DNA of 23,248 bases from a virus. Lineage: Duplodnaviria; Heunggongvirae; Uroviricota; Caudoviricetes. The notes under the pieces were generated by a model. It did no database searches, was not told the DNA's origin, and saw nothing but the letters and a program-made list of their open reading frames with translations. Position numbers and translations under genes: made by a program. The stretch lies in the IMG/VR virus record IMGVR_UViG_2537562015_000009; one strand, 5' to 3'. Within the stretch, counting starts at the first letter, position 1. Each line of letters starts with the position of its first letter. Positions 1 through 23,248 of the stretch are shown here, one piece after another.

Positions 1-1131
1 TCAAATGACCAGTTTTTTCCACTCCTTACCACGTGCATCGTTGTAAATATCGGTCATTTTTTGATTCGAATGGCCAAGCAAAATTTGGGTGTCGATCCCT
101 TGCTCCCTGAACAAACGCTCCGACAATGATCGCTGTTCATGGAAAGAGGGTGGGGTACCATTAGCGCACCAGTTGTAATCTACAGAGTCCCGCGCTTTTT
201 TAAATGCAACTGTTAACGTTGCTGGCTTAACCATCCCGCCGCGCTTGGCTGTCCCTTTCGCATGATGGTGGTGCAATAGCCACGGACTAAGAACGCAATC
301 GCGACAGGATGACGCCACATCATCCAGGGTGAGATTTAATTTATTGCAACGCAGAGCAAGAGGGATGGCAATCCGGGTTCCTGTTTTTTGCTGTTCGACA
401 TGAAGATAACCATCCCGGATATCCGAAAATTGCATTTTGCAAATATCTGAAAGGCGCTGGCCTGTCATCAGTGCCAGCAGCATGCCGCGCTGTAAAAAGT
501 AACCATCCTTTTCCGCTGCGTTATAAATCATCATCCACTCATCAAAAGTCAGTCGCTGCCTTGATATCCGCACCTGCGGTTTTTTTGCCGATTCTGCAGG
601 GTTAAAGCCTGGCGGAACATCGCCTGTTTGCTGGGCTTCCCGGAAAACATCGATCAGTACCTTCCTGAAAATTTGTCCCATTCTGTTATGTCCTCTGGCC
701 TTGTACTCTTCCAGCACCGATACCACATCTTTTACGGTTATGGCATCTAACGGTCTGGTGCCAAAACGTTCATCAAATACCCTGAGAGGGGCCGCTTTTT
801 GTTTCAGCGTGTTGAGTTTGATCTCTCCGTTTTCATATCTTTCCTGTTGAATTTTTCTGTAATTATTCAGAAAAATGGAAACGGTTGATGAACCGCCGGT
901 ATCATTAATAATTTTCTCCTGCAGACTGAGCATTTGTTTCATTTGCTGCCTGGCAAGACGGCTGTTCGCTTCTGCTGCAATAGTTTCTGCCAGTTTCTGG
1001 TCAATACTGCCGAGACCGTGATTTTTGCCTGTTATGGGATGCCTGTAACGCCAGTAAACTTTGTTATTTCTTTTGTCAAAATACGGAGATAATCCCGGAA
1101 CATCAGTTTTATATTTTCGCGGGCGCGCCAT
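1..1131 (-). CDS. int: Lambda-family tyrosine integrase
   Basis: 376 aa ORF, ATG at 1129-1131 with GGAAG/AGAGGA upstream; N-terminal arm-binding region resembling lambda Int (..YFDKRNNKVYWRYRHPITGKNHGLG..); C-terminus ..FHEQRSLSERLF..LLGHSNQKMTDIYNDARGKEW matches the catalytic R/H/Y region of lambda Int. Confidence 0.85.
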   Translation of the reverse strand: MARPRKYKTDVPGLSPYFDKRNNKVYWRYRHPITGKNHGLGSIDQKLAETIAAEANSRLARQQMKQMLSLQEKIINDTGGSSTVSIFLNNYRKIQQERYENGEIKLNTLKQKAAPLRVFDERFGTRPLDAITVKDVVSVLEEYKARGHNRMGQIFRKVLIDVFREAQQTGDVPPGFNPAESAKKPQVRISRQRLTFDEWMMIYNAAEKDGYFLQRGMLLALMTGQRLSDICKMQFSDIRDGYLHVEQQKTGTRIAIPLALRCNKLNLTLDDVASSCRDCVLSPWLLHHHHAKGTAKRGGMVKPATLTVAFKKARDSVDYNWCANGTPPSFHEQRSLSERLFREQGIDTQILLGHSNQKMTDIYNDARGKEWKKLVI

Positions 1132-15300: not shown

Positions 15301-16065
15301 ATGGAAGAACAGCACGGTAATTACTTTATAAAACGAATTCAGTTGATTGGAAGGGGTGCATTTGGCTTTGTTGAACACGTTAAGGTTTACAACCTCAACA
15401 AGGGTGAATGTGGGGATTATGCTAGAAAGGTTTTAGCCCCCGAAAAACCAGAGCTTTTGGCGCAAATAGAGCAGTTTAGAAGGCGTTTTAAAAGGGAGGT
15501 CGTGTATCAATCACATTGCGTACATAGCAATATTGTTCCTATTTATTTGTGCGATTTGTTTGCCGAGAATCCATGGTTCATTATGGATAAAGCAGAATGT
15601 GATCTTGAGCACGAAATAACGAACAACCTTCTTACAACAGATCAAAAAATTTCAATAGTGAAAATGGTATTAGATGGTGTAGCTCACATCCATGCGAAAG
15701 GCTATTTACACAGAGATATAAAACCATTTAATGTCTTGCGATTTAGCGACGGAACATACAAGGTGTCTGATTTTGGTCTGGTAAAAGATACAAATCCCGA
15801 AGGGGATACCACTAAATTGACCGAGATCGGTACCCGTATGGGAAGTACAAGATATATGGCTCCCGAGATTTTATATAATGCCGAGTATTCAGTTAAGACT
15901 GATGTTTATGCGGTGGGGCGGTTAATTGAGGACTTAAATTTAGATGATAAAAAAATAAAGCCTATCATAGCGAAGTGTACCAGGATGGATAAAGATGATA
16001 GATATCAGACAATAGATGATGTGGCGTTTGATTTTGTGCATTCTTTTTTAAGGAGTGAGTCATGA
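15301..16065 (+). CDS. Eukaryotic-like (Hanks-type) Ser/Thr protein kinase, single-domain
   Basis: G-loop IGRGAFGFV, Lys in YARKVL, catalytic loop HRDIKPFN, DFG in VSDFGLV, APE in YMAPE; 254 aa from ATG 15301 (GGTGAG RBS); AT-rich relative to flanks. Confidence 0.85.
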   Translation: MEEQHGNYFIKRIQLIGRGAFGFVEHVKVYNLNKGECGDYARKVLAPEKPELLAQIEQFRRRFKREVVYQSHCVHSNIVPIYLCDLFAENPWFIMDKAECDLEHEITNNLLTTDQKISIVKMVLDGVAHIHAKGYLHRDIKPFNVLRFSDGTYKVSDFGLVKDTNPEGDTTKLTEIGTRMGSTRYMAPEILYNAEYSVKTDVYAVGRLIEDLNLDDKKIKPIIAKCTRMDKDDRYQTIDDVAFDFVHSFLRSES

Positions 16066-16805
16066 TTCAGCTGATAGCGACTTCATCATTCTCGTATCCA
16101 AAAGAACCAGGTAGGGTCAACGAAGATTCATTGCTTCCTCCCAAAATTGTAGGGGATGGCATCTTATTTGCCGTAGCTGATGGTGTAGGTTCATACACTG
16201 GTGCCAGTCAGGCTTCATCAATGGCAATTGCTGAACTTTCAGCATTGACAAGCTTATCTTTTGACACAGTTCCGGATGTATTTGATGAAGTTAAGCGAAA
16301 GGTTATGTCGTTAGCTGATGTTAATGATGAGTTCGATAAAGCTGCTACTACACTTACGTTTTGTTATGTTTGTGATAGCGGAATTATTATTGGTCATATT
16401 GGTGATTGTCGTTTGTATTGCATTGGAGAGAAGAAAGCATACCAATTGACGAAGGACGATACCAGGCATCAGATGCTAATTGATCAGAATATTTTTAAAC
16501 CCAGAGATTTGAAGGATAAACCGGGCAAAAATATCTTAACGACGGCTATAGCCTCAAATGTTGATATGGAATACGACTGTGATTTTATCACATGGAAAGA
16601 TTTACCTAGTATTAACGGGGTATATCATCTGTGTATCATGTCTGATGGGGTTCATAACGTTTGGGAAAAACGCCCCAGATTTACATCAAATACGATGAGT
16701 AATAGTCAGAAGTTTTCTAATGGCATTTTGCGTCGTATAGAGAGAGCCGGACCTGATGATGACTTTTCTTTAGTAAGTATAATGGTGCGTGTGACGTCAG
16801 ATTAG
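16062..16805 (+). CDS. PP2C-family (PPM) Ser/Thr protein phosphatase
   Basis: Motifs RVNEDS, FAVADGVGS, GHIGDCRLY, IMSDGV, GPDDDFS; ATG overlaps the kinase stop (ATGA), so probably translationally coupled. Confidence 0.8.
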   Translation: MIQLIATSSFSYPKEPGRVNEDSLLPPKIVGDGILFAVADGVGSYTGASQASSMAIAELSALTSLSFDTVPDVFDEVKRKVMSLADVNDEFDKAATTLTFCYVCDSGIIIGHIGDCRLYCIGEKKAYQLTKDDTRHQMLIDQNIFKPRDLKDKPGKNILTTAIASNVDMEYDCDFITWKDLPSINGVYHLCIMSDGVHNVWEKRPRFTSNTMSNSQKFSNGILRRIERAGPDDDFSLVSIMVRVTSD

Positions 16806-18471: not shown

Positions 18472-18547
18472 GGCCCTTTAGCTCAGTGGTGAGAGCGAGC
18501 GACTCATAATCGCCAGGTCGCTGGTTCAAATCCAGCAAGGGCCACCA
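18472..18547 (+). tRNA. tRNA with CAT anticodon, IleX-like (tRNA-Ile2; formally Met/Ile CAU)
   Basis: Cloverleaf with acceptor GGCCCTT/AAGGGCC, anticodon loop CTCATAA (CAT at 18505-18507), 3' CCA; near-identical to E. coli ileX from memory. Confidence 0.8.
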
Positions 18548-18548
18548 A

Positions 18549-18625
18549 CCGTCACCAGTTCATCAGGAAAGAGCGTCAACCCTTTAAGTTGAGTGTGCGA
18601 GGTTCGAGTCCTCGGTGGCGGGCCA
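18549..18625 (+). tRNA. tRNA-like gene with atypical anticodon loop (CCTTTAA; C at position 33), identity uncertain, possibly pseudo-tRNA
   Basis: Acceptor CCGTCAC/GTGGCGG (one G-U), T-arm CGAGG-TTCGAGT-CCTCG, 3' CCA; anticodon stem TCAAC/GTTGA; loop lacks the conserved U33. Confidence 0.5.
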
Positions 18626-18627
18626 GT

Positions 18628-18703
<76 letters not shown>

Positions 18704-18706
18704 TAT

Positions 18707-18781
<75 letters not shown>

Positions 18782-19159
18782 GCATTTGAAATAAGCCTTA
18801 TTGTATTGCAGCACTGGCGTATTTTTTATTACGTGGGAGCAGGTTGTTTTAAGAGACATTCTGTTCTCTGGCTATGATTTGAGGCCAGGTTAGCCTCAGT
18901 GCTGATTTTTTTTACGACAGCAGAATGGTGCATTATCGGTGGAGATTTTGTATTTCCTGGCAGGGTCGGTAATGCATCATTCTGATGTTGTAAGCATCGC
19001 TCAGAATAACGTTGAGATTAATCGCGTACTAAGCAAAACTTGGAAATACATCCTTAACCGCCGCACCAGGCGGTTTTTTTTATTCATTTTTTTCATGGCT
19101 CGCTACGGCGGGCCTTTTTCATATCCTCGCCACACCCGGCGCATATCACATCAAATATG

Positions 19160-19402
19160 GCTTACAGCCGTGTGTCGACTTTCTCCGGGGATTATCTCCG
19201 CGTAACTGACAACAAGGGGAAAACGCACGACGTGCTGACCGGAAGTGATGACGGTCGCCACAGCAATACCTCTCTGGCGTGGGGAGCTGGCGTGCAGTTT
19301 AACCCGACCGAATCCGTGGCCGTTGATGTCGCTTATGAAGGCTCCGGCAGCGGTGACTGGCGTACCAACAGTTTCATCGTGGGTGTCGGCTATAAATTCT
19401 GA
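19160..19402 (+). pseudogene. lom: lom (Lom/Ail/OmpX-family outer membrane protein), 5'-truncated remnant
   Basis: Encodes only the C-terminal part, ..AYSRVSTFSGDYLRVTDNKGKTHDVLTGSDDGRHSNTSLAWGAGVQFNPTESVAVDVAYEGSGSGDWRTNSFIVGVGYKF, matching lambda Lom residues from about 127 to the end; no N-terminal coding sequence upstream. Confidence 0.7.
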
Positions 19403-19428
19403 TTAGCCAGGTAACACAGTGTTATGAC

Positions 19429-19455
19429 AGCCCGCCGGTTCAGGCGGGCTTTTTT
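19429..19455 (+). terminator. Intrinsic terminator after lom remnant
   Basis: AGCCCGCC-GGTTCA-GGCGGGCT followed by TTTTTT. Confidence 0.6.
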
Positions 19456-19468
19456 GTGGGGGGGGAAT

Positions 19469-22438
19469 ATGGCAGTACTGATTTCAGGTGTACTGAAAGA
19501 CGGTGCAGGTAAGCCGATACAAAACTGCACCATTCAGCTAAAGGCCAGGCGCAACAGCACCACGGTGGTGGTGAACACAGTGGCCTCAGAAAATCCGGAT
19601 GAAGCCGGGCGTTATACAATGGACGTCGAGTATGGTCAGTACAGCGTCAGTCTGTTGGTGGAGGGGTTCCCGCCGTCACACGCCGGGATTATCACCGTAT
19701 ATGAGGACTCAAAGCCTGGCACACTGAATGATTTCCTCGGTGCAATGACGGAGGATGATGCCCGTCCGGAGGCACTGCGCCGTTTTGAGCTGATGGTGGA
19801 AGAGGTGGCGCGTAACGCCTCCGCGGTGGCACAGAACACGGCAGCCGCGAAGAAGTCAGCCAGCGATGCCAGCACATCAGCCCGTGAGGCGGCAACCCGT
19901 GCGACTGATGCTGCAGGCTTAGCACGTGCCGCCAGCACGTCAGCCGGACAGGCCGCATCGTCGGCTCAGTCAGCGTCTTCCAGCGCAGGAACGGCATCGA
20001 CAAAGGCCAGTGAAGCAGCGAAAAGTGCTGCTGCTGCAGAGTCATCAAAAAGCGCGGCAGCTACCAGCGCCAGTGCCGCGAAAACGTCAGAAACGAATGC
20101 CGCAGCATCACAAAAATCGGCAGCCACTTCTGCATCCACAGCGACCACGAAGGCGTCAGAAGCTGCCACCTCGGCACGGGGTGCGGCGGCCTCAAAAGAG
20201 GCAGCGAAATCATCAGAAACGAATGCATCATCAAGTGCCAGTAGTGCAGCTTCCTCGGCAACGGCGGCAGGAAATTCCGCGAAGGCGGCAAAAACGTCCG
20301 AGACGAACGCTAAGTCTTCTGAAACAGCAGCGGGACAGAGCGCCTCAGCTGCGGCAGGTTCAAAAACAGCGGCTGCGTCGTCTGCCAGTGCCGCGTCAAC
20401 AAGTGCCGGGCAGGCCTCAGCCAGTGCCACCGCCGCCGGAAAATCGGCAGAAAGCGCCGCATCATCCGCTTCAACAGCCACAACGAAGGCTGGCGAAGCC
20501 ACTGAGCAAGCCACTGCAGCAGCGAGGTCTGCTTCTGCAGCAAAAACCTCTGAAACAAATGCAAAGACTTCAGCAGACAATGCTGCTTCCTCTAAGGCGG
20601 CAGCCGCATCGTCCGCTGGTTCAGCGGCGTCATCGGCATCATCTGCGTCTGCTTCAAAAGATGAGGCGACCAGACAAGCGTCAGCAGCGAAAGGTAGTGC
20701 CACGACAGCAACAACGAAAGCATCAGAGGCGGCAGGCAGTGCGACGGCTGCATCTCAGAGCAAAGTTGCTGCTGAATCCGCGGCAACGCGTGCCGAAACA
20801 GCAGCAAAACGGGCAGAGGATATTGCTGATGCCGTATCTCTGGAAGATGCGAGCACGACGAAAAAAGGTGTGGTTCAGCTTAGTAGTGCAACCAATAGCG
20901 CATCTGAAACGCAGGCTGCAACGCCGAAAGCAGTAAAGGCCGCGTATGACCTTGCTGGCGCAAAATATACCGCTCAGGACGCCACGACGGCACAAAAAGG
21001 GATAGTCCAGCTCAGTAGTGCCACCAACAGCACGTCTGAAACACTGGCTGCGACACCGAAAGCGGTTAAGGCGGTAATGGATGAAACAAATAAGAAAGCC
21101 CCATTAAACAGCCCGGCGCTGACCGGAACGCCAACAACGCCAACTGCGCCAAAAGGGACTAATAATACTCAGATCGCAAGCACGGCTTATGTGATGGCCG
21201 CGATTGCCGCACTTGTAGATTCGTCACCTGATGCACTGAACACGCTGAACGAGCTGGCGGCGGCGCTGGGCAACGACCCGAATTTTGCGACCACCATGAC
21301 TAACGCGCTTGCGGGTAAGCAACCGAAAGATGCCACCCTGACGGCGCTGGCCGGGCTTGCTACTGCGGCAGACAGGTTTCCGTATTTTACGGGGAATGAT
21401 GTCGCCAGCCTGGCAACCCTGACAAAAGTCGGGCGGGATATTCTTGCGAAATCGACCGTTGCCGCCGTTATCGAATACCTCGGTTTACAGGAAACGGTAA
21501 ATCAGGCTTCTGGCGCATTACAGAAAAAACAGAACGGCGCAGATATTCCGGGAAAAGATACCTTCACCAAAAACATTGGGGCCTGCCGCGCATATAGCGC
21601 ATGGCTGAATATTGGTGGCGATAGTCAGGTCTGGACAACCGCGCAATTTATTTCGTGGCTGGAGAGTCAGGGAGCATTTAACCATCCTTACTGGATGTGC
21701 AAAGGCTCATGGGCTTATGCACATAATAAGGTCATTACAGATACAGGTTGCGGAAATATTTGTCTTGCAGGTGCTGTGGTGGAAGTTATTGGCACTCGCG
21801 GCGCAATGACCATACGCGTTACTACGCCGAGCACGTCCAGCGGTGGCGGAATTACTAACGCTCAATTCACTTATATTAATCATGGTGATGCTTACGCTCC
21901 TGGCTGGCGACGAGACTACAACACGAAAAACCAGCAGCCTGCATTTGCTTTAGGGCAAACAGGACGCAGGGTCGCAAATGATAAAGCTGTTGGCTGGAAC
22001 TGGAATAGCGGTGTTTATGATGCAGATATCAGTGGTGCATCGACATTAATCCTCCACTTCAATATGAATGCGGGGAGTTGCCCTGCTGTACAGTTCCGCG
22101 TGAATTACAGGAACGGCGGTATTTTTTATCGTTCAGCGCGTGATGGTTATGGCTTTGAAGCTAACTGGTCAGAGTTTTACACCACAACACGCAAACCCTC
22201 TGCGGGGGATGTTGGTGCATATACGCAGGCAGAATGTAACTCAAGGTTTATTACAGGTATTCGCCTTGGCGGTCTGTCATCTGTTCAGACATGGAAAGGC
22301 CCCGGCTGGTCTGACAGGTCAGGTTATGTCGTTACGGGTTCAGTTAACGGAAACCGTGATGAATTAATTGATACAACTCAGGCAAGGCCAATTCAGTATT
22401 GCATTAATGGGACGTGGTATAACGCGGGGAGTATTTAA
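19469..22438 (+). CDS. stf: Side tail fibre protein (lambda Stf / StfR-like)
   Basis: From ATG 19469 the N-terminus MAVLISGVLKDGAGKPIQNCTIQLKARRNSTTVVVNT.. closely matches lambda Stf; long Ala/Ser-rich repeat region; duplicated KGxVQLSSATNSxSETxAATPKAVK motifs. Confidence 0.85.
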   Translation: MAVLISGVLKDGAGKPIQNCTIQLKARRNSTTVVVNTVASENPDEAGRYTMDVEYGQYSVSLLVEGFPPSHAGIITVYEDSKPGTLNDFLGAMTEDDARPEALRRFELMVEEVARNASAVAQNTAAAKKSASDASTSAREAATRATDAAGLARAASTSAGQAASSAQSASSSAGTASTKASEAAKSAAAAESSKSAAATSASAAKTSETNAAASQKSAATSASTATTKASEAATSARGAAASKEAAKSSETNASSSASSAASSATAAGNSAKAAKTSETNAKSSETAAGQSASAAAGSKTAAASSASAASTSAGQASASATAAGKSAESAASSASTATTKAGEATEQATAAARSASAAKTSETNAKTSADNAASSKAAAASSAGSAASSASSASASKDEATRQASAAKGSATTATTKASEAAGSATAASQSKVAAESAATRAETAAKRAEDIADAVSLEDASTTKKGVVQLSSATNSASETQAATPKAVKAAYDLAGAKYTAQDATTAQKGIVQLSSATNSTSETLAATPKAVKAVMDETNKKAPLNSPALTGTPTTPTAPKGTNNTQIASTAYVMAAIAALVDSSPDALNTLNELAAALGNDPNFATTMTNALAGKQPKDATLTALAGLATAADRFPYFTGNDVASLATLTKVGRDILAKSTVAAVIEYLGLQETVNQASGALQKKQNGADIPGKDTFTKNIGACRAYSAWLNIGGDSQVWTTAQFISWLESQGAFNHPYWMCKGSWAYAHNKVITDTGCGNICLAGAVVEVIGTRGAMTIRVTTPSTSSGGGITNAQFTYINHGDAYAPGWRRDYNTKNQQPAFALGQTGRRVANDKAVGWNWNSGVYDADISGASTLILHFNMNAGSCPAVQFRVNYRNGGIFYRSARDGYGFEANWSEFYTTTRKPSAGDVGAYTQAECNSRFITGIRLGGLSSVQTWKGPGWSDRSGYVVTGSVNGNRDELIDTTQARPIQYCINGTWYNAGSI
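19800..20830. repeat. Ala/Ser/Thr-rich low-complexity coding repeats within stf
   Basis: Recurrent GCx/TCx-rich units encoding ..KTSETNA(K/A)SS../..ASSASxA..; explains the long out-of-frame and antisense ORFs in the track. Confidence 0.7.
21468..21493. other. Putative Gin/Pin/Hin-family invertase crossover site (gix/pix-like) inside stf
   Basis: TTATCGAATACCTCGGTTTACAGGAA closely resembles the Mu gix / Salmonella hix 26 bp sites as recalled (TTATCCAAAACCTCGGTTTACAGGAA); lies at the constant/variable junction of stf, encoding ..IEYLGLQE.. Confidence 0.5.
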
Positions 22439-22440
22439 CG

Positions 22441-22974
22441 ATGATGCACTTAAAAAACATTACTGCTGGCAACCCTAAAACAAAAGAGCAATACCAGCTA
22501 ACAAAGCAATTTAACATCAAATGGCTTTATTCAGATGATGGAAAAAACTGGTATGAGGAACAAAAGAATTTCCAGCCAGACACTTTGAAAATGGTCTATG
22601 ACCATAACGGCGTTATTATTTGTATTGAAAAGGATGTTTCAGCAATTAATCCAGAGGGTGCAAGCGTCGTTGAATTACCTGATATTACAGCAAATCGCCG
22701 GGCTGATATTTCGGGGAAATGGATGTTCAAAGATGGCGTAGTGATAAAGCGAACTTATACCGAGGAAGAGCAGAGGCAACAAGCGGAAAATGAAAAGCAA
22801 AGCCTGTTGCAACTTGTCAGGGATAAAACCCAGCTATGGGACTCACAGCTACGGCTGGGCATCATTTCCGACGAGAATAAACAAAAATTAACCGAGTGGA
22901 TGCTCTATGCGCAGAAAGTCGAATCTACAGACACCTCCAGCCTGCCAGTAACATTTCCAGAACAACCAGCATGA
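22441..22974 (+). CDS. tfa: Tail fibre assembly protein
   Basis: 177 aa immediately after stf; C-terminal region ..MFKDGVVIKRTYTEEEQRQQAENEKQSLL.. is the conserved Tfa domain. Confidence 0.8.
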   Translation: MMHLKNITAGNPKTKEQYQLTKQFNIKWLYSDDGKNWYEEQKNFQPDTLKMVYDHNGVIICIEKDVSAINPEGASVVELPDITANRRADISGKWMFKDGVVIKRTYTEEEQRQQAENEKQSLLQLVRDKTQLWDSQLRLGIISDENKQKLTEWMLYAQKVESTDTSSLPVTFPEQPA

Positions 22975-22977
22975 AAC

Positions 22978-22997
22978 AAGGCCCGATAGCGGGCCTT
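22978..22997. terminator. Hairpin between convergent tfa genes (bidirectional terminator-like)
   Basis: AAGGCCCG-ATAG-CGGGCCTT, followed by A/T-rich sequence. Confidence 0.4.
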
Positions 22998-23002
22998 AAT
23001 TT

Positions 23003-23248
23003 TTATTCAGGCTTTTGTGGCCATTCAGGATTTGCCGTATCCACACGGCTGACCAGAACACTGTAGCGTCCCCATGCTTCCAGTCGTGTGCGTTCCTCGT
23101 CTGTTGCCATATTCAGCCTGACAGCGCGTTCCAGCGGCCGAATAACGCTTTCTGCTTCGGAAAGTAACGCGGCCTTTTGTGATTCGGCCTGTTGTTGCTG
23201 TTCGTCAGCCGTATAAATCCGTTTAACGACTGCGTCGTCCTTAAACAT
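23003..23248 (-). CDS. Tail fibre assembly protein, alternative inverted copy (partial; 5' end beyond window)
   Basis: Minus-strand C-terminal Tfa domain [29 protein letters not shown].. parallels the plus-strand tfa C-terminus; the Met at the window edge is probably internal. Confidence 0.7.

Follow-up and report, generated by a model that had tools for sequence, protein, structure and literature searches.

Crossover sites of Mu-type invertible segments are defined as two imperfect inverted half-sites of 12 bp around a 2-bp core (gix-like pattern: TTNTCNNNNACC-NN-GGTNNNNGANAA). Efficient inversion by Gin, Hin or Cin requires two sites and a Fis-bound enhancer on the same supercoiled DNA. In phage Mu (NC_000929), both gix sites read TTATCCAAAACCTCGGTTTACAGGAA, and the annotated boundary of the G segment lies within their central dinucleotide. 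The C segment of P1 (cixL/cixR sites, Cin invertase) and the P segment of e14 (pix site, PinE invertase) are complete systems, with the invertase encoded alongside. In both, as in the locus described here, a 26-bp site is found at the junction between the constant and the variable part of the fibre gene, and the Sv-U cassettes are convergent. The recombinational enhancer of P1 is annotated inside cin (nt 19-90). Invertases of the Pin family work in trans between cryptic prophages; the P segment of e14 is flipped in trans by PinQ, and the flipped e14 tail-fibre product blocks adsorption of T2 (PMC12529663).

The locus described here is a decayed form of an already known system and is locked in one orientation. 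It lies at the right end of the window, i.e. the whole stretch of DNA that was analysed (23,248 nucleotides), which is 100% identical to positions 1364231-1387478 of Escherichia coli E1739 (NZ_CM180506.1). Very probably, it is what remains, on the left side, of an invertible G segment of the Mu type that had been grafted onto the side tail-fibre gene of a lambdoid prophage (integration site, ompW) and is now fixed. This prophage is defective and belongs to an E. coli lineage of the enterotoxigenic type; its fibre is locked in the S'/U' specificity (G(-) type). As a truncated near-copy of the textbook G segment of Mu, the locus matters little beyond its correct annotation.

An orphan crossover site of the gix type is located at positions 21468-21493 (+ strand). 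This 26-mer, TTATCGAATACCTCGGTTTACAGGAA, is present once in the window, where no chance occurrence is expected even with 3 mismatches allowed. It comprises an outer half-site (21468-21479), a central TC dinucleotide (21480-21481) and an inner half-site (21482-21493), and is read in frame (IEYLGLQE) from codon 682 of the 1004-aa Stf ORF. A sequence-only reading of the window had noted a resemblance to Gin, Pin and Hin sites; this is borne out, as both gix sites of Mu share 24 of its 26 bases and differ at the other 2. The number of differences is 5 with P1 cixR (an AATACC variant is common to both), 9 with P1 cixL and 8-10 with e14 pix. The central dinucleotide of the P1 and e14 sites is TT, unlike the TC of the window site. 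The identical 26-mer borders naturally inverted segments in sibling prophages (see below). Judged by its sequence and by its in-frame position at the constant/variable junction of a fibre gene, which is that of the 26-bp sites of Gin/Cin/Pin/Min-type segments, the 26-mer is a genuine Mu-type (gix) inversion site of the Gin/Cin/Pin class.

The gene that carries the site, stf (19424-22438, + strand; RefSeq start, 19469; Pfam phage_tail_N and Phage_fiber_2), is a mosaic side tail-fibre gene. The N-terminus of its product resembles the Stf proteins of lambda and Rac (residues 16-509: 91.7% identity to StfR of the Rac prophage of K-12), the middle resembles P2 H (residues 475-1004: 52% identity) and residues 682-1004 correspond to the variable part of Mu S' (95.0% identity). 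The constant part of the fibre is of the lambda/Rac Stf and P2 H types, unlike the Sc part of Mu. At the DNA level, stf is 96% identical to P2 gene H upstream of the site and 94% identical to Mu S' downstream of it. The switch from P2 H-like to Mu S'-like sequence occurs at the site, which confirms its proposed location at the constant/variable junction.

Downstream of stf, the proposed succession of tfa, a hairpin and an oppositely oriented tfa C-terminal domain is found. The intact tail-fibre assembly gene tfa (22441-22974, + strand; Caudo_TAP, Pfam E = 8e-37) is the orthologue of Mu U' (97.7% amino-acid identity, 176 residues). A GC-rich hairpin (22978-22997; 8-bp stem with 6 GC pairs, dG -17.5 kcal/mol, z = -3.79) separates the convergent tfa genes; it is terminator-like on the + strand, with a T-rich run after the stem, and all its 20 bases match the U'/U intergenic hairpin of Mu. 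The 3' part of a truncated second tfa, orthologous to Mu U, is located at positions 23003-23248 (- strand; Caudo_TAP E = 1e-28, profile positions 36-131 only; 94.6% identity to Mu U residues 84-175). This pseudogene, labelled 'incomplete; missing N-terminus' in RefSeq, lacks ~83 codons at the N-terminal end and extends 36 bp beyond the window. Two cassettes are represented unequally in E1739: S'v-U' is complete, and the second one is merely a tfa remnant (last 282 bp, no Sv).

Comparison with Mu (NC_000929) by blastn gave an ungapped alignment of 1819 bp with 94.0% identity, which begins at the gin-proximal gix, covers S'v and U', stops inside U and extends 35 bp past the window end. Positions 21465-23248 (+ strand) correspond to the left ~60% of a Mu-type G segment in a fixed G(-) arrangement, i.e. 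variable part of S', U', hairpin, and, on the opposite strand, the 3' end of U. The collinear nucleotide homology starting at gix identifies the segment as a direct sequence descendant of a G/C segment of the Mu/P1 type. These four elements have the order and the orientation of G(-) in Mu; unlike Mu, the locus has one gix only and lacks gin with the enhancer region, the alternative Sv and the 5' part of U.

Complete segments are found in sibling prophages located at ompW (WS1933D, TW11681) or beside ybhB/bioA (13C1065T, ETEC6). All have the same stf as the window, a left site identical at 26 of 26 positions and the same S'v-U' cassette; the attachment site and flanks of WS1933D and TW11681 are also those of the window prophage. 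Unlike the window element, the siblings have a segment of 3.1-3.2 kb with a full U, Sv, an inverted right (partner) site and a gin stub of 64 aa; both orientations occur among them. WS1933D and the window prophage are collinear (97.3% identity up to the breakpoint, 99.3% beyond); the part of WS1933D in between contains the full U, Sv, the inverted site TTATCTAAAACCTCGGTTTACAGGAA and the 64-aa recombinase fragment. Relative to these present-day siblings, as distinct from a dated ancestor, the window element has the same structure except for 2,909 bp that are missing, and its deletion junction shows 11 bp of microhomology (direct repeats GCGGTTGGCTG).

The junction was found in only 4 of 5,426 complete genomes; these 4 display, by construction, a single arrangement. 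A truncation due to an assembly artefact was considered and rejected, given these 4 genomes and the presence of a 100% identical junction in CP024232, an independent complete genome, which argues against an assembly error.

WS1933D and TW11681, on the one hand, and 13C1065T and ETEC6, on the other hand, are related by clean inversions whose ends coincide with the two sites, with flanks 99.3-99.96% identical. Computed flipped junctions have 100% identity matches in other genomes. On the evidence of these natural inversions, sites of this class are functional. The siblings provide a clean natural example of flipping, with both orientations present and a cis invertase reduced to a 64-aa stub; this fits experimental reports that invertases of the Pin family act in trans from one cryptic prophage to another.

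The 26-mer could alternatively be conserved coding sequence carried along with the tail-fibre module, in a lineage that never had an invertible segment. The model for such a lineage is P2, in which H has a 25/26 match, TTATCGAATATCTCGGTTTACAGGAA, in frame and in the same reading context, followed in the P2 record by a single assembly gene, G. P2 is not known to have an inversion system; its fibre is fixed and functionally like that of the window. Since P2 H carries a near-identical site, the site sequence alone is no proof of inversion, and a gix-like 26-mer within a tail-fibre gene does not amount to an active switch: the sites of P2 H and of the window locus are both partnerless. P2 differs from the window, however, by having no convergent second tfa fragment, whereas in the window this fragment follows the hairpin exactly as in Mu G. 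As the whole segment, with partner site and gin stub, is present in a sibling integrated at the same place, and as the window differs from it by a simple 2.9-kb microhomology deletion, descent from a lineage devoid of inversion is highly improbable.

The G-segment remnant is followed at a short distance by the end of the prophage. Past the window, E1739 has the end of the tfa pseudogene, ~480 bp of non-coding DNA (short ORFs of at most 67 aa, none annotated), attR in ompW (3' fragment) and yciE; the DNA from the window edge to attR is only ~520 bp long. The sequence-only reading had predicted an inverted partner site and a pin-like invertase gene just beyond the right edge; both are absent. 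No second crossover site was detected on either strand (up to 7-8 mismatches allowed) in the window, the 8 kb downstream and the left flank; the sequence corresponding to the right site of the siblings falls in the deleted 2.9 kb. When Mu Gin, PinE and PinR served as tblastn queries on the 27 kb made up of the prophage and its flanks (E <= 10), no invertase homologue was revealed, only noise (E > 1); the same query matches the gin stub of a sibling at 8e-45 (positive control). No serine recombinase gene is annotated in the prophage or its flanks. The 5' region of Mu gin has no match in the prophage, which suggests that the cis enhancer is missing; the siblings keep a region homologous to this 5' end.

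As neither a partner site nor an invertase is found in the prophage or its flanks, tail-fibre switching is not retained in this defective prophage, contrary to an earlier suggestion. The proposed likeness to the host-range switches of Mu G, P1 C and e14 P is correct for the layout, which derives from such a segment (94% DNA identity to Mu G), and incorrect if an active switch is meant. That a partner and a pin-like invertase just past the edge would still flip the segment is scarcely credible. Such activity would be in line with the 24/26 identity of the site to Mu gix and with the two orientations of siblings that have the same left site, but the ~520 bp before attR contain neither site nor invertase, the second cassette is down to 282 bp of tfa, and the junction is shared, unchanged, with CP024232.

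The fixed remnant would be explained by the following steps. The ancestor, as reconstructed from the siblings, would have carried a left gix where the constant part of stf meets the variable part, two convergent cassettes (S'v-U' and U-Sv), an inverted right gix, and a gene encoding a serine invertase of the gin family with the enhancer in its 5' end. Inversion between the two sites would have exchanged the receptor-binding C-terminus of Stf together with its chaperone. With the deletion of 2,909 bp between the 11-bp direct repeats, the right gix and the invertase stub were lost, as were the alternative Sv and the 5' part of U; this would have left the locus permanently fixed in a G(-)-like state. 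With a single site and no partner, enhancer or invertase in cis, inversion would not be possible. The locus would now have two intact products, an Stf with the specificity of Mu S' and a Tfa that corresponds to Mu U'.

It is unlikely, at a probability that is low rather than negligible, that the fixed locus still has a role. An invertase encoded elsewhere in E1739 could join the orphan site with a remote gix-like site and lead to large rearrangements; or the fixed Stf(S')/Tfa(U') pair could be expressed and selected as a receptor-masking anti-phage factor, like StfE2 of e14 (PMC12529663), the deletion having locked the protective state. The flipping of the siblings despite their 64-aa stub, the trans-acting Pin invertases and the blocking of T2 by e14 would be compatible with these routes, as would the intact stf and tfa ORFs in an otherwise gutted prophage; these ORFs may, however, merely reflect a recent deletion, and the prophage and its flanks have neither a partner site nor an enhancer region. 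Their outcome may be large inversions or deletions, or a phage receptor blocked by the expressed Stf and Tfa. Rare recombination of the orphan site with a distant site may occur.

The prophage that carries the G-segment remnant has a lom fragment just upstream of stf (19157-19402, + strand; RefSeq pseudogene 'Ail/Lom family, missing N-terminus'). The annotation from the tRNA cluster up to this fragment shows no head or tail genes; the fragment marks a large deletion that took the lysis and virion genes. The Rac prophage of K-12 (stfR-tfaR-pinR) resembles it in being defective and in having kept lom', stf and tfa; the two Stf proteins share 92% identity over their N-terminal 500 residues. Unlike the window prophage, Rac keeps an invertase gene, pinR, and stfR has no recognisable site. 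When stfR was scanned for the 26-mer, the best match had 8 mismatches and was on the wrong strand; Rac is therefore a poor model for the site and was rejected as such, despite pinR. In E1739, a second place also matches the tail-fibre query.

At every base the window matches positions 1364231-1387478 of the chromosome of E. coli E1739 (NZ_CM180506.1), isolated from a human diarrhoeal stool in Bangladesh. According to the RefSeq annotation of the stretch and its flanks, ompW is the insertion point of a defective lambdoid prophage. The integrase gene (1-1131, minus strand) is followed by the genes of an excisionase and an exonuclease, dicB, repressor/cro, replication genes, hokD, a Doc-type toxin gene, rusA and the antiterminator gene Q. 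Then come the genes of a Ser/Thr protein kinase and a PP2C phosphatase (15226-16805, immediately 3' of Q), a DNA methyltransferase gene, a tRNA cluster, a lom fragment lacking its N-terminus (19157-19402), stf, tfa and a reverse tfa pseudogene. The kinase/phosphatase pair looks like moron-type cargo of a defective prophage. As the sequence-only reading had noticed, the prophage lacks virion genes: those for lysis, head and tail are all missing. Because of the virion-gene deletion, Q lies ~4 kb upstream of stf-tfa. ARAGORN predicts four tRNA genes in 18472-18781 (CAT, two Lys-TTT, Gly-TCC); RefSeq gives three, the CAT one as tRNA-Ile, the additional gene being the Lys-TTT at 18549-18625. The cluster directly precedes the lom fragment, at the expected place of lysis and virion genes. 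Left of attL (771-2186 of L002, the chromosome stretch left of the window), the 5' part of ompW is interrupted by IS1, so that ompW is in three fragments in E1739.

The elements of an invertible tail-fibre segment listed from the sequence are all present. A 26-mer (21468-21493), found once in the window and not expected by chance, lies in stf and keeps the reading frame (IEYLGLQE from codon 682 of the 1004-aa Stf ORF). It is followed by tfa (22441-22974), which encodes an intact Caudo_TAP protein (Pfam), a hairpin (22978-22997; 8-bp stem, T-tail, dG -17.5 kcal/mol, z = -3.8) and a reverse tfa ORF (23003-23248) matching positions 36-131 only of the same profile. The proposed likeness of the 26-mer to known inversion sites holds: both gix sites of Mu read TTATCCAAAACCTCGGTTTACAGGAA in NC_000929, so the window site has 2 differences from them (24/26 match). 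The annotated boundary of the Mu G segment sits within the central dinucleotide of the gix 26-mer. P1 cixR (TTATCCAATACCTTGGTTTAAGAGAA) has 5 differences and shares the AATACC variant; P1 cixL has 9, and the pix sites of e14 have 8-10. P2 gene H also has such a sequence (TTATCGAATATCTCGGTTTACAGGAA; 1589-1614 of the P2 sequence L010), in frame and with a 25/26 match to the window site. P2 is not known to have an inversion system, and the motif by itself is therefore no evidence of a switch.

Kinship with Mu G is stronger than had been claimed. Starting at 21465 and running 35 bp beyond the window, 1819 bp align ungapped with Mu at 94.0% identity, through the gin-proximal gix, S'v, U', the intergenic hairpin and, on the opposite strand, 281 bp of U. 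Protein identities are 95.0% for Stf residues 682-1004 and Mu S', 97.7% for Tfa and U', and 94.6% for the reverse tfa fragment and U residues 84-175. The resemblance therefore goes beyond shared architecture to direct homology, and the locus corresponds to the G(-) arrangement of Mu. With a 181-bp probe over the site, the left 122-127 bases match P2 gene H (96%) and the right ~96 bases match Mu S' (94%), the changeover being located at the site. Over residues 16-509, Stf shares 91.7% identity with StfR of the K-12 Rac prophage. Stf is thus a three-part mosaic: lambda/Rac Stf, P2 H-like and Mu S'. Mid-stf (about 19900-20800) is a long Ala/Ser/Thr-rich repetitive coding region, whose repeats give many spurious long ORFs on both strands, e.g. 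19926-20936 (+) and 19966-20703 (-).

Immediately to the right of the window, a partner site in inverted orientation and the gene of a pin-like invertase had been predicted; the E1739 sequence refutes this. The tfa pseudogene ends 36 bp beyond the window, at 10285 of L001 (chromosome stretch covering the right part and downstream DNA); about 480 bp with only short unannotated ORFs separate it from the ompW 3' fragment (attR), yciE, yciF, yciG and the trp operon. Even when up to 7-8 mismatches are allowed, the site has no second copy in the window and flanking DNA. Mu Gin, PinE and PinR, used as tblastn queries on 27 kb (whole prophage and flanks), gave only noise (E > 1), although they recover a gin fragment from a sibling locus with E = 8e-45. 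The 5' region of Mu gin, equivalent to that annotated as enhancer in P1 cin (nt 19-90 of the gene), has no DNA match in the prophage and flanks. A tail-fibre query matches a second place in NZ_CM180506.1; this may be another tail-fibre locus, one that could carry a gix-like site or an invertase.

Inversion by Gin, Hin or Cin requires two inverted sites and a Fis-bound enhancer on one supercoiled molecule. What remains here is one crossover site, one complete S'v-U' cassette and the stub of a second tfa; partner site, invertase and enhancer DNA are absent from the prophage and flanks. The locus would therefore be unable to switch and locked in a G(-)-type state. It belongs to the Mu G / P1 C family by descent, but lacks the defining second site, invertase, enhancer and second cassette, and so is best described as a relic of such a system rather than a switch; the view that switching is retained is wrong for the E1739 genome. 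P2 gene H provides a cautionary parallel. Nothing in this locus departs from known biology.

The missing DNA is found in WS1933D (L006), which carries a prophage at the same ompW site. It is collinear with the E1739 prophage up to L001 10284 (97.3%) and from L001 10271 onward (99.3%). Between these points, WS1933D has the remainder of U (528 bp when complete), an alternative Sv, a second site in inverted orientation (TTATCTAAAACCTCGGTTTACAGGAA) at a distance of 3.2 kb from the left one, the N-terminal 64 aa of a Gin-like recombinase (homology by tblastn reaching about residue 99, 75% identity to Mu Gin), further tfa fragments and a methyltransferase gene. An exact repeat of 11 bp, GCGGTTGGCTG, forms the overlap of the two alignments, so the window element equals a WS1933D-type structure minus 2,909 bp, lost by what the sequences show to be a microhomology deletion. 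Among 5,426 complete E. coli genomes, just 4 cover 80% or more of a 1-kb probe that spans tfa, tfa', the junction and ompW, including an independent assembly (O6:H16 strain 2014EL-1346-6, 100% identity), and elsewhere the match ends at or near the breakpoint. On this evidence the deletion is real, recent and lineage-specific. In WS1933D, the stretch from the gin stub to attR (L006 8986-10139) has two tfa 3' fragments and the gene of a class I SAM methyltransferase, which resemble relics, one nested in another, of past exchanges of tail-fibre modules; 44 bp beyond the second of these tfa fragments is the right-hand copy of the 11-bp repeat.

Inverted forms are found in sibling prophages. TW11681 (L008) carries the same ompW prophage as WS1933D, with 3,247 bp inverted exactly between the sites and flanks 99.96% identical (3 differences in ~8,800 bases). 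Next to ybhB/bioA, ETEC6 (L009) and 13C1065T (L007) show the same inverted relationship. Flipped junctions, computed by inversion between the centres of the two sites, are found at 100.0% in at least 13 records (L007 type) and 6 records (L006 type). This class of site is thus functional in the siblings. The recombinase gene is truncated in all four loci to a 64-aa N-terminal Gin-like stub (L006 8764-8958, L008 9683-9877, L007 8594-8788, L009 9521-9712) that spans the region annotated as enhancer in P1 cin. Flipping is either older than the truncation or done in trans. The presence of both orientations despite stub-only invertases suggests that an invertase from another locus flips the segment in trans; PinQ, which acts in trans on e14, is an experimental case of a Pin-family invertase flipping another cryptic prophage (PMC12529663). 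Between WS1933D and TW11681, the inverted segment has 60 differences in 3,247, nearly all of them clustered in the S'v-U' cassette (at L006 5600-6816), as if a different G-type segment had been its source, by replacement or conversion.
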